The translations under genes and the position numbers were made by a program. From Spirochaetota bacterium (GTDB lineage Bacteria > Spirochaetota > UBA4802 > UBA5550), in the NCBI GenBank assembly GCA_036848375.1, contig DAIUKG010000024.1:126-64125 (forward strand): 64,000 nucleotides of DNA, in the 5' to 3' direction. Below the pieces are notes generated by a model. It made no database searches. It was not told where the DNA came from and saw nothing but the letters and a program-made list of their open reading frames with translations. The number at the start of each line of letters is the position of its first letter. The stretch's first letter is position 1. Positions 52,456 to 64,000 of the stretch are shown here, one piece after another.

Positions 52456-53883
52456 CTATTCACGGTCATCATTAAATACGATTGTTGCCCCTCCAACATC
52501 AAGGACATCGCCAGACTCAAGAACACGCTTCTTCACTGGTTTATTGTTCACGGTTATTTCCCCATCGCAGATAACGGTATAGTTTTTCTTTTGTTTATCA
52601 AAAACAATTGTGGCATGATTTTCTTTTACCGGAACAGGGCCTCCGATTATTGTCATATCAGCCCTGGTACTTCCTCCAATAACCGTCCTGCCTTTATTCA
52701 GCGTGAACATCTTTGTAACAGCCTTTGTCTGGCCGGCATTGAGTACTTCAAGGAAGGCCTCTTTTCTTTTATTTTTAAAACTGATTTGTGACAATATCCA
52801 TGCCAGGCATAATGAAGCCAACAGTGGAATAAGCATAAATAGACTGAAATTCTTCATGGGAAGACCGAAAACTGTGCTTGAAAAATAAAATCTCGAGGCC
52901 TCTTTCTTAAGCGGCCCGGAACCGTATACAACCTTTACAAACTTTTTATCAGCAGGTGCCATTGTTGCCGGATAATCAATCATATATTCATTAACGATCT
53001 GGTCAGCAATCCTGGAATAGACATTTCTGAGTTCAGACTCATCCCGCGCATCAAAGAGAGCGCCCCCTGTTTCATAAGCAATTTCTTTAAGATGCCGTTC
53101 TTTCCTTTCACGGGGGTCGCCGAAATTAATCGCAAAGACTGAAATTCCTTCCTCCTGGCAATAACGAACAGGCTCAGTATAACTGAACGTTTTAGTCCCG
53201 AAATCGGGATGAACTTTTTTTGTGTTTAAAAAGTAAGGCCTGTTCTCGCCATCCGAAAGTATTATCAGCGCCTTTCTTCCCTTTACCTGCTTGAATTCTT
53301 CAACCGCCCTGAAGAGGCTTGCATATATTTCAGTATACCCGGCCTCGCCTTCAGGCTTTTGAATTTCAGAGAGCTGACGGGTAATCTTCGCTTTGTCTTT
53401 AACAGGATCCGACAGGCACTGGTAATAAGTGTTATAAACCGCAATCCCGACTGTGTCTTCGGGGTTAGACACACTCTCAAGAAAAGTCGCGACCGCATTC
53501 TTCGCATGCTGAATCTTTGTGCTCTTCAGAAATTTTCCCCTGGCTTTCATTGACCGGTACATACTCCCGGAATTGTCTATCAAAAGTAAAAAATTTATCC
53601 CGGATTCATAATTCGCCCTGGGGTTGAATGCTGTTATTTGTGGTATCCTTGTGTAGGTTTTGCCGTCCTGTGATTCAAATAGTGAAAAATTATCGGCTGT
53701 ACAGCCAGTTATCGGTAAACCCTTGTTATCAGAAAGACCGACGTACAACCTCACATTCTGATTAATTAAAAGTGACGATGTATCTATCTGGGATATGCGC
53801 ACTGACTGGGCCAGGACAGGCACCGAGCAAAAAATCAATATTGTAAAAACAAATATTCTTTTTAAAACAGTTAATATCTTCAT
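52456..53883 (-). CDS. Membrane protein: exported VWA domain + TM + cytoplasmic FHA-like domain
   Basis: Start moved to ATG 53883 (GAGGGG RBS); signal peptide; intact MIDAS (DNSGSM, T, LSDG); TM FSLFMLIPLLASLCLAWIL; FHA-like TVIGG..NHATI..ITVNNKPV..LESGDVLDVG. Confidence 0.85.
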   Translation of the reverse strand: MKILTVLKRIFVFTILIFCSVPVLAQSVRISQIDTSSLLINQNVRLYVGLSDNKGLPITGCTADNFSLFESQDGKTYTRIPQITAFNPRANYESGINFLLLIDNSGSMYRSMKARGKFLKSTKIQHAKNAVATFLESVSNPEDTVGIAVYNTYYQCLSDPVKDKAKITRQLSEIQKPEGEAGYTEIYASLFRAVEEFKQVKGRKALIILSDGENRPYFLNTKKVHPDFGTKTFSYTEPVRYCQEEGISVFAINFGDPRERKERHLKEIAYETGGALFDARDESELRNVYSRIADQIVNEYMIDYPATMAPADKKFVKVVYGSGPLKKEASRFYFSSTVFGLPMKNFSLFMLIPLLASLCLAWILSQISFKNKRKEAFLEVLNAGQTKAVTKMFTLNKGRTVIGGSTRADMTIIGGPVPVKENHATIVFDKQKKNYTVICDGEITVNNKPVKKRVLESGDVLDVGGATIVFNDDRE

Positions 53884-53906
53884 AAATGTTCCCCTCACTG
53901 CTCGAC

Positions 53907-54800
53907 TTACTTATAGTGATAAAGCAGCTTTGCTGTCCCGATCTTTATAACATCCCCGATCTTCAATCTATGGCTGCTGATTTTATCATCGTTCACAAAT
54001 AATGGCGCACGTCCATCCCCTGAGGACTTTATGAAAACTTCGTCTTTCTTGACATGGACCTTCGCATGCATGGGATTGACTTCCCTGTAACCCTTTAAAA
54101 CGATATCACAGGAATCACTGTCGCCGACATCAAGCCTCCTCTGGTTGACAAGAAAATCCTTTCCCTTGTATCTTCCGTTAAGGAGGGTGAAGACACCGAA
54201 TGAAAGACGTGCCTCGGCAAAACCGTACATAATTCCAATGCACACGCCCAGGATGAGAAGCCCTGTAAGGCGTGCGAGCATAATATCAGGGAAAATTATT
54301 CGTGCATACTCAAGAGCGAGACCGCCCAATAAACCACCTGATAAACCGCCAATAATTCCGACACGTATTTTCTCAACTGAACGCGCCCGTATCCCTTCAG
54401 CAACGCCGGCGAAAAGGCCAAGCAGCGACCATCCCAGCGCCCGTGAAACCGGCAAACCAATGCGATTGAACTCTTTCATTGAGTGGAGAAGATACTCTCC
54501 GGCAATAAACAGCACGGCCTGCCCGGTTAAAAATCCCAGGACCCCACCCAGTGCCCCAAACAGTATTCCGTGAATGATGCCGGTACGAATCCGGTATTTA
54601 TTGGACATGATTATCCCGTCGCTGCTTCCGAAAAATCCTCCCATTATACCGCCAAACACGCCGCCTAGCGAAAGTGTAAAAACCAAATAAGAAGGAAAAT
54701 CAACCTGAAAGCATAAAATCATCTCTGCAACCGACCATGCTCCAAGCCCGGCGCAAATCCCGATTAAGCATAAAAATATTCTTCTTTTTAACAATGACAT
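53907..54800 (-). CDS. Polytopic Gly-rich membrane protein with C-terminal FHA-like domain
   Basis: About 6 Gly-rich TMs; LDVGDSDSCDIVL..MHAKV..LFVND..LKIGDVIKIG. Confidence 0.82.
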   Translation of the reverse strand: MSLLKRRIFLCLIGICAGLGAWSVAEMILCFQVDFPSYLVFTLSLGGVFGGIMGGFFGSSDGIIMSNKYRIRTGIIHGILFGALGGVLGFLTGQAVLFIAGEYLLHSMKEFNRIGLPVSRALGWSLLGLFAGVAEGIRARSVEKIRVGIIGGLSGGLLGGLALEYARIIFPDIMLARLTGLLILGVCIGIMYGFAEARLSFGVFTLLNGRYKGKDFLVNQRRLDVGDSDSCDIVLKGYREVNPMHAKVHVKKDEVFIKSSGDGRAPLFVNDDKISSHRLKIGDVIKIGTAKLLYHYK

Positions 54801-54818
54801 TGGCTGTTCCGTCCTTGA

Positions 54819-56762
54819 TTAAAGTATTGTAAAGTTTATGGATTTCTCCTGTTTGTCTCTCCCGACAATCACCCGGGTATATTTCCCTGACTCAATATCG
54901 ACTGACCGGGTCTCCTTTACTCCATCACCGTCGACTGAAAGAATATAGGTTCCGGGGGCAAGTATAATTCTCTGATATTTCCCGGACAGAGGCTTAAGAG
55001 TTTTTGCTACACTTCTATTGCCACCCTGGATATAGGATGTTGAATTATTAATCTTTATAACCATGGACTCACCCGCACTTTTAACTATCAATGTCCCGGG
55101 ATAAGGGACGATATCAGCATTGATAAAGACGCAGGATTGATGAGGCTCAACAGTGACCGATAGAATTTTTTTATAGTATTTATTCTTTTGAATTTTAATA
55201 TAAAAGGTCTTCCCGCTCGTTAAAAAAGCGGCTGAATCACGGATATCAGAAAAATCCTTCCAGCGGACCCATTGCCTTCTGAAATAAATATAGATGTCAG
55301 CCTCATCGGTCATATCCAGCCCGGTATGTGCATCATATATTGAATAATGAAACGTCACCGGTATTTCACCTGCCGGATTATGAGTGAAAACAACAATATC
55401 AACACCGTCATCACCACGTTTTTCTTTCTGAATATCTCGCGATAAAATATCGAGATCATTAATATAAAGGACATTGTCAACGTCAAGGAGCAGGCGATAC
55501 TGCGCTGTGTTAACATACGCTCTCTGCGTTTTATAAACCAGCGGACCTCCCACTTGCACGTCATCGCAGTGAAAGCCAAGTTTCACGTTTTCAGCGGGGA
55601 TGAATTTATTTCTCACTTTCTTTAATAGTTGTGCATTAATGTATCGGGGACGCAGTTCAGGCCTGTTTTCTTTGAAATGCACTTCTACCTGAAAAGCGCC
55701 ATACCGGTCACTCTGATACCACTCATGATAGTATCCGGTAACATAAAGATACCCGAGAAGGGATCCGCCAATTCCACCCAGGAACAATAGTGATGCTGCC
55801 GCCTGTTTTATCCTTCCTGTCGCTTTCGTGTGACCAGTTTTGGATGAGATTTTATTTTTTTTATCGATGATTTTATCTTCATCAATATAAGTACGCAATA
55901 TTTCTCTGGACGTCTTCCCGTAACGCTGCATTTTAAAACGCTTTTCCAGCAGTTTAATGATATCATCAAGATCGCGGTAGCGCCTTTTAATGTTATGATG
56001 CATTGTTTTTTTTATTATCTTCAGAAGTACCGGTGAAATCCTGGGGTTAATTTTTCTGGCCTTTATATATTTTCCTTTCTGGATCGCATTTATGGTTTCA
56101 GGAGTGATCGAACCGGGAAATGGCGATTTTCCGGTCACCATTTCATACAGGACCACCCCCAGGGAATAAATATCCGCCCTTTTATCAACACTGCTGCAGT
56201 CTGTAATCTGTTCGGGTGACATATATGCCGGAGTTCCCAGCGTCATTTCCCTGGTGAGGCATTGATCAGTTGAATCCTTTGACGTGGCAATGCCGAAGTC
56301 AGTCAGCTTAACCGCGCCTTCATGCGAGATTAAAACATTGTCAGGCTTGATATCACGGTGAATAACACCATTGTCATGGGCATACTTCAACGCCTGGCAT
56401 ATCTCATACAGAATGAGTCTGGCAATTTCACCGGGCAGATATCGTTTCTTGGCAATCAGCCGCGAAAGCGTGATACCATTGACGTATTCCATTGCAATAT
56501 AGTAAAACTGCCCTTCCTTGAAATGATCATAAACCTGAACAATGCGGTCATTATGAAAATCCATCATAAGCTTTGCTTCCCGCTTGAAGCGTTCAGTAAT
56601 ATTTCTACCGCTACCCAGAGCCAGGCGTTTGAGAATAATTTCCCGGTTCAGAGTGGGATGTTTAGCTTTAAAAATGTCTCCCATCCCACCGGAAGCAATT
56701 TTTTCAACAACAGTGTATTTACCAACTGATCGTTTCATCATGATTAAAACTCTCTTCTTCAC
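54819..56762 (-). CDS. Hanks-type Ser/Thr protein kinase with TM and exported C-terminal domain
   Basis: IASGGMGDIF, IILK, HRDIKPDN, DFG, GTPAYMSPEQ, DIYSLG; TM LLFLGGIGGSLLGYLY; GTG start overlaps the phosphatase stop (alternative ATG 56741). Confidence 0.93.
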   Translation of the reverse strand: MKKRVLIMMKRSVGKYTVVEKIASGGMGDIFKAKHPTLNREIILKRLALGSGRNITERFKREAKLMMDFHNDRIVQVYDHFKEGQFYYIAMEYVNGITLSRLIAKKRYLPGEIARLILYEICQALKYAHDNGVIHRDIKPDNVLISHEGAVKLTDFGIATSKDSTDQCLTREMTLGTPAYMSPEQITDCSSVDKRADIYSLGVVLYEMVTGKSPFPGSITPETINAIQKGKYIKARKINPRISPVLLKIIKKTMHHNIKRRYRDLDDIIKLLEKRFKMQRYGKTSREILRTYIDEDKIIDKKNKISSKTGHTKATGRIKQAAASLLFLGGIGGSLLGYLYVTGYYHEWYQSDRYGAFQVEVHFKENRPELRPRYINAQLLKKVRNKFIPAENVKLGFHCDDVQVGGPLVYKTQRAYVNTAQYRLLLDVDNVLYINDLDILSRDIQKEKRGDDGVDIVVFTHNPAGEIPVTFHYSIYDAHTGLDMTDEADIYIYFRRQWVRWKDFSDIRDSAAFLTSGKTFYIKIQKNKYYKKILSVTVEPHQSCVFINADIVPYPGTLIVKSAGESMVIKINNSTSYIQGGNRSVAKTLKPLSGKYQRIILAPGTYILSVDGDGVKETRSVDIESGKYTRVIVGRDKQEKSINFTIL

Positions 56763-57823
56763 GCCTCAAGCGACACTTCATCAATATCATATAAAAAAGG
56801 GGCCTCAGCGATTTCAATTAGATCCTCATCAGGATTAATGTCTTTTCCATTTTTAATGACAAGCATCAGGCACTTTTCCGGATTATGCATTTGAACATAT
56901 TTTCCTTTAGCTCGCAAGGAATATTTCCCTGACACAGCCCGGTGCCCTCCAAAGTATAAGCTCTTTTCCAAATTTTTTTCATCGATATATTCTTCAAGCA
57001 TGAGCATCACGCTCCCTTCCTCTGATTGGCCGTCCGCTGTCCACGTCAGACCTTCAATAACCTCTGGATCATAGCGGTAATTGATAACGCGCTCTCTATC
57101 AAAAAAATTAGCAGGTTCTGCATGTGAAGCAAGGAAATCTTTTCCTGCGGCAACGAGCGGAAGATTTTTCTCGAATTTATAATAATCTTCTTCAAAGTCA
57201 ATGCCATAAAATTTTTTAACATAAAATGCGACCATCTGCCCCTCAAAAGCATATTTCATGAAAGCATGGTTTCCGTCACCTGACTCATTCCTTATGTTCT
57301 CATGGTTCCCTTTCAAAAAATGAAAATTATCGGGGCAGGCCCGTTTTAATTCCATCACTGCCTCCATGACTCCGAAACTTTCTCTCATTTCTTCATCCAT
57401 GAAATCATGATTTTTATAACCCTTTAAAAACTCCCGGTATGCCTGCTCCCACCGCCGTGAAGCCCGGCCTTCTCCGTGCATACCATCGCCGAGACAAATA
57501 ATCTGCACCCTCCCGTCAACAAGGTTGCGCAGATTGCTTGAACCATTCTCGGATTGATAGAACAATATCGTGAGAAAATCAAAAAGGCGGCCATGAAGAT
57601 CGGGGATGATTATCGAATCAATATCATGCCGCAGAAGCACCAGCCCGCCCGGCAGGTTGTTCCGGTCACGGGGCCTTATTGCAGAATTCTCGTTAGCCAG
57701 AACTTCACAGACGCCCCGGACCCTTACTTCAATAGTGAAAGGGTCAGGGGGGGCGTCTCTGGAGTAAATCTCCAGCAGGCTGTCTTTAACTTCTGTGAAG
57801 AGTTTATCTGTCTGTTTCATCAT
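56759..57823 (-). CDS. Calcineurin-like metallophosphoesterase, putative protein phosphatase
   Basis: Start approximate (57820-57832), directly after the upstream stop; PDLHG, LGDGMH, KGNHE, SHAEP, GGHR. Confidence 0.82.
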   Translation of the reverse strand: MMKQTDKLFTEVKDSLLEIYSRDAPPDPFTIEVRVRGVCEVLANENSAIRPRDRNNLPGGLVLLRHDIDSIIIPDLHGRLFDFLTILFYQSENGSSNLRNLVDGRVQIICLGDGMHGEGRASRRWEQAYREFLKGYKNHDFMDEEMRESFGVMEAVMELKRACPDNFHFLKGNHENIRNESGDGNHAFMKYAFEGQMVAFYVKKFYGIDFEEDYYKFEKNLPLVAAGKDFLASHAEPANFFDRERVINYRYDPEVIEGLTWTADGQSEEGSVMLMLEEYIDEKNLEKSLYFGGHRAVSGKYSLRAKGKYVQMHNPEKCLMLVIKNGKDINPDEDLIEIAEAPFLYDIDEVSLEA

Positions 57824-57833
57824 ACCTAACATG

Positions 57834-58367
57834 CTAAGCATTGCTGATGCATGTTTTGTTGATATCAATAAAATCTTTTGTGAGGGCCAGGGTCGCTCTT
57901 GTAAGCACCTTTTCCTGGTCATCGGCTTCAAGGGAATCATTATAAACCGCGATTTTATAAACCGCTGACGTCTTCCTGACCGGGCCTTTTTCGAACTGAA
58001 CCTCCTCATCAATAAGCACATCGCTTGAAAGAGACGAGGCATCTTCCTCTGCTGCGTCAGGGACATCCTTTCGCAGGCCAATACTTGTATAACTTGTCTT
58101 TCTTTTTTCACCAACAACCGGTCCGATATTGACCAGGGACCCGGAATAAGTCATGACAAGCGCTCCCCGATTGTCGTCTTTTTCAAGATAATCGACTTCA
58201 TCCATGCCTGCGGAATCGATTTCCTTTTCAAACGCATTCTTCTTTTCAATCCAGGCTTCGGCCATTCTTTCAAGCGATTCGTCTGAATTATCAAGGCCCG
58301 ATATCTTCACTATGTCACGCAAATGTTCCTGAACCGTTTCCGGTATCTGATTTAAGTATTCTCCCAT
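57834..58367 (-). CDS. Hypothetical protein, stand-alone domain X (TYSGSL family)
   Basis: Start moved to ATG 58367 (AGGAGG RBS); 177 aa; collinear similarity to the N-terminal part of 58607-59473. Confidence 0.78.
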   Translation of the reverse strand: MGEYLNQIPETVQEHLRDIVKISGLDNSDESLERMAEAWIEKKNAFEKEIDSAGMDEVDYLEKDDNRGALVMTYSGSLVNIGPVVGEKRKTSYTSIGLRKDVPDAAEEDASSLSSDVLIDEEVQFEKGPVRKTSAVYKIAVYNDSLEADDQEKVLTRATLALTKDFIDINKTCISNA

Positions 58368-58606
58368 CTTCCCCTCCTGTAATAAAATCATATATGAGTA
58401 ATAAAAAAATTCCCGATCGTCAAATTTTCCGGCACTTTTTTTTAAGTTATATGCTTTCTTTTGTAATTTTTTTGCCTTCAGGGTTTTTCTTTCCATATTA
58501 AACACGAAAAGGCAATAAAATGAATATTTTTTCGGTTTAAGTTTGTCATTCCTGTCTTTTTATTGTATCTATATACGATTGCAACAAAAACCTTGAGGAG
58601 GTTCCT

Positions 58607-59473
58607 ATGGATTCTTTGCACATCTCTCTTCCTGAACAAATTCAGGAACATTTAAAAACCCTGATACCGGAATCCCCGGCCGCTGACAGAGAAAAATTCC
58701 TGGAAGAACTGAAAAAAAACTGGAACTCCAAACACGAGCTTTTTAATGCGCAGATAAAATCCCTGGACATGATTTACGCCGATAATTTCGAAAGTGAAGA
58801 CCCTTCCGCCGCTTTAATGCTCACCTATTCCGGTTCCCTTATTGGCTTCAGCACCGTAAAAAAATCTCATCGTCGCATTGAATATTACAGCATTAAACTC
58901 AGGGCGGATGTCCCTGAAGCAATGAAAATCGAAGAAACACAAATTAAAGGCCAAGCGGCTGTGGGCAAAGTGCTTGAGTTAAATAGTGGCGCTCTTCAGA
59001 AAACATCCGCCCTTTTTAAAATTGCCCGATTCAAAGAAGGGGTTTCTGAAGATGAACAGAATATTCGTGTTGAAGAAGCGATAATTTTTCTCACCGATGG
59101 CTTTGTAAAAATCAATCAAGAGTTGAATCTTAATAGCTCGCCTGAACCGGGTCAGTTTACTATAAAATCAATCATTACTCAAATCGCCCATAAAAATGAT
59201 TTATCCCGGAAACAGATAAAAACAATTCTTGATGATTACTGGAACATTATCGAGAAAGGAATTCTTATGGGAGAAAAAATACCGCTCGGGAAAATCGGAA
59301 AAGCCTATCTTAAAATGCGGCATTCCCGGAAAGCGAGAATTGGAAAAAACTTAATTACCGGAGATGATGTTACCATCCGCGCAAAACCGGAAATGGCAGT
59401 TCCCAAAATGTCATTCAGCTCCTACATCAAAAACAAAGCCCAGGGGATTTCGATAGACCACGATCTGGATTAA
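58607..59473 (+). CDS. Domain X fused to a C-terminal HU/IHF-like DNA-binding domain
   Basis: GAGGAGG RBS; aa 184 onward TIKSIITQIAHKNDLSRKQIKTILD..IPLGKIG..RKARIGKNLITGDDVTIRAK..PKMSFS matches the HU fold. Confidence 0.8.
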   Translation: MDSLHISLPEQIQEHLKTLIPESPAADREKFLEELKKNWNSKHELFNAQIKSLDMIYADNFESEDPSAALMLTYSGSLIGFSTVKKSHRRIEYYSIKLRADVPEAMKIEETQIKGQAAVGKVLELNSGALQKTSALFKIARFKEGVSEDEQNIRVEEAIIFLTDGFVKINQELNLNSSPEPGQFTIKSIITQIAHKNDLSRKQIKTILDDYWNIIEKGILMGEKIPLGKIGKAYLKMRHSRKARIGKNLITGDDVTIRAKPEMAVPKMSFSSYIKNKAQGISIDHDLD

Positions 59474-59703: not shown

Positions 59704-60138
59704 ATGAGTGCTAATATTGAGACAAGACAAAGTAAATACACAGAAAGGTACAAAGATCATCAGGTTCTAGCAGAGGATATTCTGAATGATGCACAGGAAG
59801 CTGATTTTTTTAAACAAATCAGACTTCGCCTTAAAGAAGTGAGAAAAGAACTTAAAATGACGCAAAGAGAGTTCGGGGAGTCTTCAGGAATTGACAGGCG
59901 ATATGTTGCTAAAGTTGAATGCGGTTCACAGAATCCTTCGTTTAAATTTTTACGAAGCATTTCCATTAAACACAAGATATCACTTGACTGGCTTCTGTAT
60001 GGCGTAGGTGACAAATACGTTGCTGCAGAGGAACAGAGTTATGGAAGTGAACTTGCCGTTTTTAAAAAACTTCTTGATAACGCCTCTCAGGATGATATTG
60101 ATGTTGTCGTCAAAATGATAAAAAAGATTCTTGGCTGA
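59704..60138 (+). CDS. XRE/Cro-C1 family HTH transcriptional regulator
   Basis: RLKEVRKELKMTQREFGESSGIDRRYVAKVECG..PS..SLDWLLYG; AGAGG RBS. Confidence 0.9.
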   Translation: MSANIETRQSKYTERYKDHQVLAEDILNDAQEADFFKQIRLRLKEVRKELKMTQREFGESSGIDRRYVAKVECGSQNPSFKFLRSISIKHKISLDWLLYGVGDKYVAAEEQSYGSELAVFKKLLDNASQDDIDVVVKMIKKILG

Positions 60139-60180: not shown

Positions 60181-60204
60181 GGGTACCGAAGGTACCCTTT
60201 TTTT
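60181..60204 (+). terminator. Rho-independent terminator between convergent genes
   Basis: GGGTACC-GAA-GGTACCC stem-loop followed by a T7 run, downstream of the XRE gene. Confidence 0.7.
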
Positions 60205-60559
60205 AGTGGTGGACGATATATACTATTTCAAGATTTGCATTCAGCTCATGCAAATCATTTAATGAATGAGCCTGCCATTGAATGTATTTTGATGCATAGA
60301 TAACAATTTTTCGATTATGCTCCGAATCTCTGAGTTTGACCAGAAAAAGTCCCAGTGAAGCGATACCTGAACTATTGATTATTTCCAGCCGGGTAAAATC
60401 TAAAATCAGAGGCTCAGCAGTGCTCATAGCATGATGCATGGTAAAATTAATTATTTCATCATAGCTTTCGATTGACTGAAGCCGAAGATTCCCTGAAAAC
60501 ACGATTTTATTATCATCTTTCTGGTACTCTACGCTATATGTTTCACCCTTAATTTTCAT
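60203..60559 (-). CDS. STAS-like protein resembling the slr1659 family
   Basis: Start moved to ATG 60559; MKIKGETYSV..FSGNLRL..LILDFTRLEIINSSGIASL..IQWQAHSL; STAS phospho-Ser region INSSG. Confidence 0.7.
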   Translation of the reverse strand: MKIKGETYSVEYQKDDNKIVFSGNLRLQSIESYDEIINFTMHHAMSTAEPLILDFTRLEIINSSGIASLGLFLVKLRDSEHNRKIVIYASKYIQWQAHSLNDLHELNANLEIVYIVHH

Positions 60560-60657
60560 AACCTGTCTGATATAATCAGTATACCTATTATGACATTTAT
60601 CGTACAATTATCTGCTTAGTAAATTTATAGCGGTTAACGATTAAATTAAAGCATTTT

Positions 60658-63002: not shown

Positions 63003-64000
63003 CTATTTTTTATATTTTGCTTTTGGTGCTTTAGCTTTCGCAGGTGCCTTCTTTTTCGGCGCCTTTTTTGCTGCAGGCTTTTTAGGGACTGCCTTTTTTG
63101 CCGGTTTCGCTTTTACCGCAGCTTTTTTCGCAGCCGCCTTCTTCGCAGGTTTCACTTTTGCAACTGCTTTTTTCGCAGATTTCGCAGAACTCTTTTCTGT
63201 TAATGCAGCCTGCGCTGCAGCCAGACGCGCTATGGGAACGCGGAAAGGCGAACAGCTTACATAATTCAAACCGACATTATGGCAAAATTCAACTGAACTC
63301 GGCTCACCGCCATGCTCTCCGCATATGCCGACTTTAAGGTTTTTCCTCACGCCGCGCCCTTTCTGGACAGCCATTTCGATAAGCTGGCCAACGCCTTCAC
63401 GGTCCAGTATTCTGAACGGGTCACTGGGAAGGATCTTCTTGGCTACATACTCCGGCAGGAAAGAACCCGAATCATCCCGGCTGTATCCGAACGTCATCTG
63501 GGTGAGGTCATTGGTCCCGAACGAGAAGAACTCGGCTTCACGGGCAATCAGATCAGCGGTAAGCGCTGCTCGCGGCACTTCAATCATGGTACCAACCTGA
63601 TACTCGACTTTCACTCCGGTTTCTTTCATGACCATAGTAGCGGCCTCGATGATAATTTTCTTCTGGAGTTCAAGCTCTTTAACCGTCCCCACAAGAGGAA
63701 CCATTACTTCAGGGCGAGCATCCACACCTTCTTTCTTGAGCTGGCATGCGGCCTCGAAGATCGCGCGCGCCTGCATTTCAGTGATTTCCGGATAGGTATT
63801 CCCGAGGCGGCATCCCCTGTGGCCGAGCATCGGATTAAATTCATGAAGAGCCTCAACCTTCGCCTTCACCTGGTCAACGGAAATGCCCAATTCCTGAGCC
63901 ATTTCGCGCTGGTTCTCTTCTTCATGGGGGACGAATTCATGCAGCGGCGGGTCAAGAAGCCGTATGGTAACGCCATAGCCTTCCATGGCCTTTAATATTC
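63003..64000 (-). CDS. ppdK: Pyruvate, phosphate dikinase (3' part, truncated by the window edge) with Lys/Ala/Pro-rich tail
   Basis: [58 protein letters not shown]. Confidence 0.96.

Follow-up and report, generated by a model that had tools for sequence, protein, structure and literature searches.

In the T6SS pathway PpkA-PppA-Fha1, a membrane Hanks kinase is encoded with its cognate PP2C phosphatase and an FHA protein, and PpkA carries a periplasmic VWA domain. The actinobacterial FhaA/FhaB-PstP-PknA/PknB system is likewise a conserved operon that encodes a phosphatase and FHA proteins alongside a receptor Hanks kinase; its phosphatase PstP is of the PP2C type, its FHA domains are canonical, its ectodomain is built of PASTA repeats and RodA and PbpA are its neighbours. 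Phosphorylation of mycobacterial HupB by STPKs is a precedent for a Ser/Thr-phosphorylated HU-type protein, although HupB is not encoded with the kinases. The TerY-P and YegI-YegK-YegL triads combine a kinase, a PP2C phosphatase and a soluble vWA protein in one genetic unit, often in stress or conflict contexts, and a kinase/phosphatase/vWA triad has been reported in actinobacterial systems (PMC7159879). A preliminary description of the locus studied here stated that known sets of this kind use PP2C phosphatases. This holds for the systems above but is incomplete, because the archaellum network of Sulfolobus acidocaldarius, formed by ArnA (FHA-ZnF), ArnB (vWA), the Hanks kinases ArnC and ArnD and the phosphatase Saci-PP2A, uses a PPP enzyme; the ArnA/ArnB FHA-vWA pair, the kinases and PP2A act at a promoter (PMC5007285).

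The window analysed here is a stretch of 64,000 nucleotides from a Spirochaetota bacterium. It contains a six-gene membrane signalling cassette, whose gene order is kept across free-living spirochaetes (Table 1). With the Arn network the module has in common FHA and vWA domains, a Hanks kinase, a PPP phosphatase and, in the model proposed below, an output at DNA, a likeness for which no orthology is claimed. The Arn proteins, however, are soluble and archaeal, a single operon does not encode them all, the FHA domain of ArnA binds phosphorylated ArnB, and the network has no X domain, HU fusion, membrane anchoring or extracytoplasmic VWA. The module shares with the T6SS pathway the kinase/phosphatase/FHA gene set and a VWA outside the cytoplasm, which here sits on a separate TM-FHA protein. 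It differs from that pathway in that its surroundings hold no conserved genes of a T6SS or another machine, the phosphatase is PPP and not PP2C, the FHA domains are without phosphothreonine-binding residues, and X and X-HU are unique to the module. The TerY-P and YegI-YegK-YegL triads resemble it in encoding kinase, phosphatase and vWA protein as a unit but have no FHA, X or HU, and HupB has no X domain. The module had been proposed as undescribed, and full-text literature searches and surveys of the HU superfamily and of vWA systems indeed yielded no description of it.

Table 1 Features of the module (positions in the window).
Feature	Position	Strand	Remarks
VWA-TM-FHA protein	52456..53883	-	475 aa; alternative GTG start 53898 gives 480 aa
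Polytopic TM-FHA protein	53907..54800	-	297 aa; C-terminal FHA domain, YscD-like, non-canonical
Hanks Ser/Thr kinase, receptor-type	54819..56762	-	647 aa
PPP-family (PP1/PP2A/PP5-like) metallophosphatase, divergent, cytoplasmic	56759..57841	-	360 aa
Domain X, stand-alone cytoplasmic protein	57834..58367	-	177 aa
Divergent intergenic region X / X-HU	58368..58606	.	239 bp
X-HU	58607..59473	+	288 aa; X paralog 1 to ~175, HU/IHF-type domain 186-277

All six ORFs, five co-directional and X-HU divergent, were found where the preliminary description had placed them, and the gene junctions were read from the sequence. The stop of X overlaps the start of the phosphatase by 8 nt (ATGCTTAG), and the phosphatase stop overlaps the kinase GTG start by 4 nt (GTGA). 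The predicted translational coupling at these two junctions counts for a single signalling module. An in-frame ATG seven codons downstream of the kinase GTG is an alternative start, used in one public gene call. The gaps given as about 20 bp were 18 nt between kinase and TM-FHA, and 23 nt between TM-FHA and the VWA-TM-FHA ATG, which has a GAGGGG ribosome-binding site (8 nt to the upstream GTG). The X start, ATG 58367, is preceded by a GGAGGGG site and lies exactly 239 bp from the X-HU start, as had been described. This spacer presumably holds the promoters of both X and X-HU. It had no Rfam match, promoter-pattern scans of it were at background level only, and no operator-like k-mer besides ribosome-binding sites was common to 41 divergent X/X-HU spacers.

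Conservation was assessed in 62 related Spirochaetota loci, each with a downstream flank of 6.5 kb or more. The order X-(phosphatase)-kinase-TM-FHA-VWA-TM-FHA was kept in all of them; kinase, TM-FHA and VWA-TM-FHA were each found in 62/62 loci, and the phosphatase adjoined X, with X immediately upstream, in 55. Since the same gene order recurs in every locus, the arrangement is far beyond chance. Identity of X among the syntenic loci was just 45-60%. Of 53 loci, 35 have X-HU within 10 kb, 30 of them with X-HU divergent from X and the remaining 5 with X-HU convergent to the operon; in the other 18 it was not found within this distance. No other conserved neighbour gene family was detected around the module in the 62 loci. 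We tentatively regard it, with somewhat less than even confidence, as a transmembrane Ser/Thr phospho-signalling module of free-living Spirochaetota, restricted to the phylum and inherited vertically, with a mechanism that is inferred. The presence of vWA, kinase and phosphatase genes in one cluster could also point to a role in phage defence or biological conflict, as in TerY-P-like triads and vWA ternary systems, and the kinase domain scores against the PADLOC defence kinases PD-T4-6 and mad6. This is highly improbable, however: the PADLOC matches concern the generic kinase domain only, with none for the other five proteins, the module is syntenic phylum-wide and diverges at host pace, it has neither variable effector domains nor an island context, its phosphatase is PPP rather than PP2C, and its VWA is membrane-anchored outside the cytoplasm.

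The kinase (Pkinase, E 1.9e-55 in Pfam) contains the HRDIKPDN, DFG and SPE motifs, and 18 homologs share without exception its catalytic Lys, HRD Asp, Asn, DFG Asp and activation-loop Thr170. A cytoplasmic catalytic domain is followed by a single TM helix at about residues 321-339 and by an extracytoplasmic domain, roughly 300 aa long, which had no Pfam family match except a weak CarboxypepD_reg in one of the 18 homologs. With every catalytic residue and the TM helix found, the intact membrane Hanks kinase noted earlier is confirmed. The phosphatase barely exceeded the Pfam cut-off for Metallophos (21.6 bits versus 21.5, E 3e-4), and all 47 matches in a profile search of the PDB were PPP Ser/Thr phosphatases (best E 0.006). 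Its AlphaFold (AF2) model (pLDDT 89.9, pTM 0.90) was best matched in Foldseek by PP5, PP2A and PP1 (E 3e-11 to 1e-9; target-normalised TM-score 0.57-0.70), and D81, H83, D119, N179, H180, H240 and H300 are invariant. Judged by profile search and fold match, the enzyme first called calcineurin-like belongs to the PPP (calcineurin) superfamily and not to PP2C; it has the PPP fold, is cytoplasmic and retains all metal and catalytic ligands.

PP1, PP5 and PP2A catalytic subunits rely on regulatory partners. The resemblance of the phosphatase to these subunits, the position of X immediately upstream of it and their 8-nt overlap, which suggests stoichiometric co-production, would all fit X being a regulatory or targeting subunit of the phosphatase, and perhaps of the kinase too, rather than a substrate. 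The two would then form a holoenzyme as with eukaryotic PPP regulatory subunits, and X-HU would recruit this enzyme to DNA for action on DNA-bound proteins. We consider this unlikely, as X is kept with its invariant motifs in a clade that has lost the adjacent phosphatase (L005, L010, L012, L017, L021, L025, L036 and L056), and is also kept in the VWA-TM-X locus described below, which has no PPP gene.

X is predicted to be a compact, confidently folded domain (AF2 pLDDT 91.8, pTM 0.88) of two N-terminal helices, eight strands and a long C-terminal helix. It had no match in Pfam, NCBIfam or PADLOC and no significant fold match in the PDB (best Foldseek E 0.17, TM-score at most 0.28), and among 1.84 billion representatives it was found in only 226 clusters (50% identity). 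As had been proposed, X and X-HU are paralogous: residues 8-171 align at 32% identity over 164 ungapped residues (BLASTP, E 3e-31), and both carry the same invariant residues. The invariant motifs are (M/L)TYSGSL and YxSIxLRxDVP; the Thr of TYSGS lies within a well-ordered hairpin of the AF2 model (pLDDT ~96). The domain occurs only stand-alone, fused to HU or, rarely, in a VWA-TM fusion. The last form was found on eight contigs of one lineage, where X replaces the FHA domain, which puts it on the cytoplasmic side of the membrane-anchored VWA protein. This fusion adjoins a TM-FHA ortholog and has no Hanks kinase within 8 kb; a HAMP and class III cyclase gene lies about 0.5 kb (gap ~540 nt) upstream of TM-FHA.

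The cyclase in a locus without a kinase would fit X being a small-molecule or nucleotide sensor with a phosphate-binding pocket, with the output enzyme of the TM-FHA/VWA-TM pair interchangeable between kinase and cyclase. In that case, a ligand would control DNA binding by X-HU in a one-component manner, and might itself be turned over by the metallophosphoesterase. The invariant residues of X (T, S, G, S, R, Y, S, R, K) are of the kind found in phosphate-binding sites. The helix/eight-stranded sheet/helix order is compatible with a ligand-binding cup, and the weak, non-significant Foldseek neighbours of X are lipocalins and PYR/PYL receptors. These matches, however, have TM-scores of about 0.2, the phosphatase model best matches protein phosphatases and not nucleotide phosphodiesterases, none of the 62 canonical loci has a cyclase gene, and the variant-locus cyclase is separated by its gap and confined to one lineage. 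A ligand sensor is therefore, in our estimation, quite unlikely.

The VWA-TM-FHA protein (Pfam VWA_2 2.8e-15, VWA 4.9e-13, FHA 1.4e-4) has TM segments at 4-36 (N-terminal signal or anchor) and 350-374, giving an extracytoplasmic VWA, one TM helix and a cytoplasmic non-canonical FHA. The VWA had been described as MIDAS-intact, and its DNSGS motif and conserved Thr and Asp proved invariant in 58 homologs. In the FHA domain of this family, the GR Arg was never found, and Lys or Arg mostly stands in place of the SxxH Ser. The TM-FHA protein (Yop-YscD_cpl 1.1e-13, FHA 6.3e-9) has multiple hydrophobic segments from residue 7 to 199 before its C-terminal cytoplasmic FHA; compared with GarA, GD replaces GR and N replaces the SxxH Ser, and the canonical Arg and Ser were found in only 12 and 7 of 52 family members, respectively. 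By alignment, both membrane FHA domains in the window are without the canonical Arg and Ser, so they are not assumable as phosphothreonine readers. The signalling idea first put forward stands in part. It is plausible in that X, whose co-occurrence with the kinase, FHA and VWA genes had been set as its test, co-occurs with them in 62/62 loci, but it needs changing with respect to these domains, which are probably phospho-independent scaffolds, to the loci where X occurs without phosphatase or kinase and to those with no X-HU nearby. The phosphorylation of X, the heterodimerisation of X with X-HU and the effect on the nucleoid that it supposes are putative.

In other phyla, the control of envelope growth is a common task of Hanks kinase/FHA operons, e.g. 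PknB/FhaA/FhaB. By analogy, the five-gene operon may regulate or scaffold an envelope process (wall growth, division or surface assembly) through phospho-independent FHA scaffolds; the membrane FHAs are degenerate and in Pfam resemble the cytoplasmic domain of T3SS YscD most closely. X-HU, unlinked in 18 of 53 loci, would then be a frequent neighbour, a nucleoid protein that recruited the same domain, and not the pathway output. This appears less probable again than a ligand sensor: no conserved envelope, division or secretion gene was found beside the module, the linkage of X-HU in 35 of 53 loci and in two orientations argues for selection on linkage, and in many loci X-HU shares its transcription unit with a small canonical FHA gene.

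In the phospho-signalling model, the kinase and the two FHA membrane proteins would form a membrane complex, in which the VWA/MIDAS domain and the kinase ectodomain may detect an envelope or external cue. Between them, kinase and phosphatase would determine how far the complex and the X-type domains are phosphorylated, with the TYSGS hairpin as a candidate acceptor or recognition site. The state of X would control whether X and X-HU are located at the membrane complex or on DNA, and altered DNA binding by X-HU would hence change gene expression or local nucleoid structure. In favour of the model are the synteny, the overlapping junctions, the paralogy and common invariant residues of X and X-HU, the linkage of X-HU in two orientations, the VWA-TM-X fusion, the canonical FHA genes beside X or X-HU in relatives, the protein-phosphatase fold, the invariant kinase and MIDAS residues, the conserved HU arm and the functional precedent of the Arn network. 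Against it stand the degenerate membrane FHAs, the well-ordered hairpin around the TYSGS Thr, where three invariant hydroxyl residues and Gly resemble a binding site no less than an acceptor loop, the loci with unlinked X-HU, the occurrence of X without phosphatase or kinase, and the absence of a conserved operator in the spacers compared. A role of X-HU as a transcription regulator is uncertain, given that DNA binding by HU-type proteins is often not sequence-specific. Its HU part (Bac_DNA_binding, E 1.3e-12 in Pfam) keeps an intact DNA-binding arm: among 40 sequences of the HU family alignment, R55 was found in 34, R58 in 38, N62 in 38, P63 in 34, T65 in 39, G66 in 38 and K86 in 34, and the window X-HU has Leu at P63. 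The true phosphothreonine reader, where one is used, may be a small canonical FHA protein encoded beside X or X-HU. New here, besides the non-canonical membrane FHAs and the VWA-TM-X fusion lineage, is precisely this additional stand-alone FHA gene, which was found in either transcription unit in 23 of 80 relatives.

Reading the sequence directly, together with the ORF listing, bore out the gene arrangement given in the preliminary description, and the public gene calls for the same contig, DAOSXK010000009.1 of MAG GCA_035380405.1, agree with the six-gene layout. The phosphatase ATG overlaps the stop codon of X, the 177-aa protein of a new domain family, by 8 nt (ATGCTTAG), and the kinase GTG start overlaps the phosphatase stop codon as GTGA. 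An in-frame ATG lies 7 codons downstream of this GTG and is used in one public gene call. Likewise, the VWA-TM-FHA protein (VWA domain, TM helix and FHA domain) would be 480 aa long if started at an upstream GTG. Rfam gave no match in the module region or in three related loci, and promoter and terminator pattern scans of the region found no more than background. The AsnC/Lrp, HTH_3 and slr1659-type regulators that flank the module were excluded from it because none of them is conserved in the related loci.

Coordinates of the module genes, their neighbours and selected genes of related loci (L numbers)
Feature	Position	Strand	Description
X	57834-58367	-	177 aa; ATG start with GGAGGGG ribosome-binding site ahead
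Phosphatase	56759-57841	-	360 aa; ATG start
Kinase	54819-56762	-	647 aa; GTG start
TM-FHA	53907-54800	-	297 aa; 18-nt gap after kinase
VWA-TM-FHA	52456-53883	-	475 aa; 23-nt gap after TM-FHA; GAGGGG site ahead
X-HU	58607-59473	+	288 aa; separated from X by 239-bp spacer
HTH_3 (Xre-type) regulator	59704-60138	+	adjoins X-HU
slr1659-superfamily regulator	60203-60607	-	near X-HU; NF047705 E 4e-27, just below cut-off
Pyruvate phosphate dikinase	63003-64000	-	in window
Pyruvate phosphate dikinase, full gene	L081:1450-4347		965 aa
Small FHA gene	L038:9525-9893	-	beside X/X-HU
Small FHA gene	L046:5044-5388	+	beside X/X-HU
VWA-TM-X fusion gene	L084:8001-10106	+	also L085, L086
Second stand-alone X paralog	L042:6690-7220	+	between RecJ and prolyl-tRNA synthetase genes

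A word-index search found 120 homologs of X, nearly all from Spirochaetota metagenome bins; the sole named cultured carrier among them was Alkalispirochaeta sphaeroplastigenens, at locus AU468_12290. A scan of one genome per GTDB species gave 231 stretches encoding a relative. The best 80 of these 231 were examined as loci, and all 80 belonged to Spirochaetota (Leptospirales, Leptonemataceae, Spirochaetaceae, Spirochaetales and Spirochaeta). The window proteins were compared with these loci by tblastn, and gene order was counted where at least 6.5 kb was available downstream of X (n = 62). In 62 of 62 loci, X was followed by co-directional genes for the kinase, the polytopic membrane protein TM-FHA and VWA-TM-FHA, always in this order, as expected if X belongs with the kinase, FHA and VWA genes. 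The identity of X across loci was only 45-60%; therefore, the gene order is maintained by selection. The phosphatase gene lay between X and the kinase in 55 of the 62 loci. It was missing from this interval in L005, L010, L012, L017, L021, L025, L036 and L056, and was relocated downstream on the opposite strand in L029 and L032. Judging from isolate names, the phosphatase-less group looks like soda or salt-lake bins. When all ORFs of the 80 loci were clustered, no other gene family was conserved within 10 kb on either side. The module is real and strongly conserved, forming one translationally coupled unit. A defence system, a reading to which we give hardly any credence, was rejected on the synteny data and on PADLOC, which matched only the generic kinase domain and none of the other five proteins.

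Linkage of the X-HU gene (X paralog fused to an HU domain) was more variable. Among the 53 loci with adequate flanks, X-HU was divergent and upstream of X in 30, convergent and just beyond VWA-TM-FHA in five, and not within 10 kb in 18. The frequency of this linkage bears on whether the module is an envelope scaffold to which X-HU is incidental, a reading that we consider quite improbable. A k-mer search of 41 divergent X/X-HU spacers revealed no shared operator, only ribosome-binding sites; an additional k-mer motif was rejected as an operator, being coding sequence of a small FHA gene. A second stand-alone X paralog with no kinase nearby was found in L042, from the MAG that also contains L031, where no X-HU is linked to the module.

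X aligned without gaps to residues 8-171 of X-HU (32% identity, E 3e-31). Therefore, the paralogy of the two proteins, noticed in the preliminary description, is real. X showed no match in Pfam, NCBIfam or PADLOC. The same invariant set emerged from an alignment of 27 stand-alone proteins and from one of 39 sequences that took in HU fusions: W40, K43, F47, T74, S76, G77, S78, L79, R90, Y94, S96, I97, R100, V103, P104, G129, S135 and F167 (alignment numbering, one higher than that of the 177-aa protein). These residues make up the motifs (M/L)TYSGSL and YxSIxLRxDVP. The AlphaFold2 model built from the X alignment was confident (pLDDT 91.8, pTM 0.88) and comprised two N-terminal helices, eight strands and a long C-terminal helix. 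Foldseek found no relative of this model in the PDB (best E 0.17; TM-score about 0.2, at most 0.28), and its lipocalin and PYR/PYL matches were discarded as not significant. A sequence profile search of the PDB gave a single, spurious match to a proteasome protein (E 0.013). A HMMER profile search that covered 1.84 billion representative proteins exhaustively (E up to 1e-3) detected only 226 clusters containing X, in two length classes of about 176 aa and about 280-305 aa. Apart from stand-alone X and X-HU, it uncovered one VWA-TM-X form and no distant family. Given these few clusters and the lack of structural or sequence matches, X is a narrow, lineage-specific domain without a detectable relative or an assigned fold. 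One X homolog, P0154 (242 aa), carries a low-complexity insertion of about 70 aa, rich in Gly, Ala, Ser and Glu, that separates the TYSGSL hairpin from the YSSIGLR motif, indicating that the surface loop of X at this position tolerates large insertions.

The C-terminal part of X-HU (residues 186-277) matched Bac_DNA_binding (PF00216, E 1.3e-12), in agreement with the HU-like fusion first noted. Residue positions follow the E. coli HupA sequence. On this numbering, the HU arm is well kept among 40 X-HU proteins: R55 in 34, R58 in 38, N62 in 38, P63 in 34, T65 in 39, G66 in 38 and K86 in 34. In the window protein, P63 is replaced by Leu and R61 by Lys. The conserved arm residues make it likely that X-HU binds DNA.

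The kinase (Pkinase E 1.9e-55) has the fold and catalytic motifs of Hanks-type Ser/Thr kinases. HRDIKPDN, DFG and SPE are all present, and all of 18 homologs retain K45, D137, N142 and D155. The single TM helix of the kinase lies near residue 330. For its ectodomain, about 300 aa long, no family match was obtained except a weak CarboxypepD_reg match in one of the 18 homologs.

The phosphatase scored barely above the Metallophos cut-off (21.6 versus 21.5 bits). In family alignments, D81, H83, D119, N179, H180, H240 and H300 were invariant, within the motifs PDLHG, GDGxHxEGR, GNHE, SHAEP and GGHR. We compared these with the PPP signature (GDxHG, GDxVDRG, GNHE and two distal metal-binding His). 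The metal ligands all appear to be present, and the second motif, GDGxHxEGR against GDxVDRG, has its Asp-Arg pair rearranged. A PDB profile search returned 47 matches, all to PPP Ser/Thr phosphatases and all marginal (E 0.006-0.05). An AlphaFold2 model built from database homologs (pLDDT 89.9, pTM 0.90) had PP5, PP2A and PP1 as its top Foldseek matches (E 3e-11 to 1e-9; target-normalised TM-score 0.57-0.70). In all, 170 matches reached E 1e-3 or lower. As modelled, the phosphatase is a divergent bacterial PPP-fold enzyme, the model settling the fold. Its substrate may be a protein or a nucleotide, the latter, as in ApaH-like relatives, being compatible with the sequence.

In VWA-TM-FHA, a VWA domain (E 3e-15) lies between an N-terminal signal/anchor and a TM helix at 350-374, according to hydrophobicity. 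This arrangement places the VWA domain outside the cytoplasm and the FHA domain inside. The MIDAS motif DNSGS is at residue 108. As proposed in the preliminary description, the MIDAS is intact: the DNSGS motif, the Thr of GYTE and the Asp of SDG are invariant in 58 homologs. The homolog search revealed no wider VWA-TM-FHA family, only near-full-length spirochaete relatives. TM-FHA matched Yop-YscD_cpl (E 1.1e-13) and FHA (E 6.3e-9), and the FHA match of VWA-TM-FHA was weak (E 1.4e-4; 22.6 bits against a cut-off of 20.7). The two proteins thus match FHA profiles, as had been claimed, and lack the canonical pThr-binding residues. In HMMER alignments, the window TM-FHA has GD in place of the GR of GarA (2kkl) and N in place of the SxxH Ser, and the window VWA-TM-FHA has GG and K at the GR Arg and SxxH Ser positions of FhaA (3po8). 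When the families were counted against a GarA reference, which matches the PDB alignment, the GR Arg was found in 0 of 58 VWA-TM-FHA and 12 of 52 TM-FHA proteins, and the corresponding counts for the SxxH Ser were 4 and 7; neither family has the NG Asn. From their sequences, the membrane FHA domains resemble phospho-independent YscD-type FHA domains and are, for the present, best treated as scaffolds, which alters the picture drawn in the preliminary description.

A small stand-alone FHA gene (114-163 aa), of which the window has none, stands beside X or X-HU in 23 of the 80 loci. Its product shows the canonical GR...SxxH...N signature in full, with Pfam FHA E-values of 5e-15 and 3e-22. The gene lies in the interval separating X-HU from X, oriented like X-HU (e.g. 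L038, L040, L049, L055, L060 and L063), immediately upstream of X and co-directional with it (L044, L046, L047 and L068), or within the X-HU transcription unit where X-HU is elsewhere (L039, L045, L051, L014 and L027). Therefore, a pThr reader has been repeatedly recruited to X and X-HU. This recruitment is the best indirect support for threonine phosphorylation reaching the two proteins.

In the VWA-TM-X fusion (P0190, 701 aa, eight contigs), X replaces the FHA domain, and about 120 aa of unassigned sequence extend the protein at its C terminus. The fusion places X at the cytoplasmic face of a VWA membrane protein. A TM-FHA ortholog (50% identical) is encoded directly upstream, and some 0.5 kb beyond it there is a HAMP plus class III cyclase gene. 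On the other strand, a 7TMR-DISM/PP2C gene lies 2 kb downstream. A radical-SAM/SPASM gene also lies further upstream. No Hanks kinase or PPP gene occurs within 8 kb, showing that X can function where no Hanks kinase is linked to it. This keeps alive readings of X as an adaptor, regulatory subunit or ligand sensor. X might be a regulatory subunit of the phosphatase or the kinase; we hold this to be unlikely. That X is a ligand sensor with interchangeable output enzymes seems to us rather less likely still.

We are far surer that the six genes are functionally linked than that the phospho-switch step takes place, and the mechanism by which a signal would reach DNA through the module is a good hypothesis, not a result. 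In the overall picture, in which our confidence comes close to an even balance without reaching it, the three membrane proteins would form a sensory complex. The kinase and the phosphatase would set the phosphorylation state of this complex and of the X-type domains, and the state of X would govern how X and X-HU are divided between the membrane complex and DNA. More specifically, and only tentatively, X may be an unrecognised phospho-acceptor or switch domain, a Ser/Thr-kinase counterpart of the two-component receiver that occurs both alone and fused to HU. On this reading, DNA binding or nucleoid organisation would be under the direct, one-step control of the receptor Hanks kinase and the PPP phosphatase, and the circuit would also include degenerate FHA membrane scaffolds and an optional canonical FHA reader.

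To our knowledge, most Hanks-kinase pathways of bacteria have no dedicated DNA-binding output encoded alongside them, such as histidine kinases have in their response regulators. In this module, a domain of new fold that is also found fused to HU keeps synteny with a receptor kinase, with FHA/VWA membrane partners and with a eukaryote-like PPP phosphatase. If X is a switch, the module would be a compact, tractable case of direct Ser/Thr signalling to a nucleoid-associated protein and would establish a new domain family as well. A natural series for dissection is offered by lineages that have or lack the phosphatase, lineages that have or lack the canonical FHA reader, and one lineage with VWA-TM-X. 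The degenerate FHA domains would, in their provisional scaffold role, be membrane scaffolds outside type III secretion.

The closest functional analogue of the module is the Sulfolobus network of ArnA (FHA), ArnB (vWA), ArnC and ArnD (Hanks kinases) and PP2A (PPP), which acts at the flaB promoter (PMC5007285). This network already combines the FHA-vWA-kinase theme with a PPP phosphatase, as the module does, so that the earlier statement that known sets use PP2C enzymes is incomplete. Further analogues are the actinobacterial Fha/PstP/Pkn operon and the T6SS PpkA-PppA-Fha1 pathway, but no T6SS gene cluster is conserved in or within 10 kb of the module in the 80 loci. The TerY-P/YegIKL triads (PMC7159879) have a PP2C enzyme and a soluble stand-alone vWA protein, whereas the module has a PPP-fold phosphatase and an FHA-fused VWA domain flanked by a signal/anchor and a TM helix. 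None of these systems has X, the X-HU fusion, two membrane FHA proteins or the gene order of the module. No description of the module was found in full-text searches of the literature or in the surveys of the HU superfamily (PMC5499826) and of vWA systems (PMC7159879), and NCBI names its parts only as "hypothetical protein", "metallophosphoesterase" and "VWA domain-containing protein". The module is thus apparently undescribed. It varies the known Hanks kinase/phosphatase/FHA/VWA signalling theme and is built around a new domain family.

The G+C content of the window ranges from 37% to 60% (2-kb windows); it is 37-45% in the last 14 kb, which include the module, and 50-60% in much of the first 36 kb. 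The pyruvate phosphate dikinase encoded at the end of the window has a Lys/Ala-rich, histone H1-like C-terminal tail, which is unusual for this enzyme.
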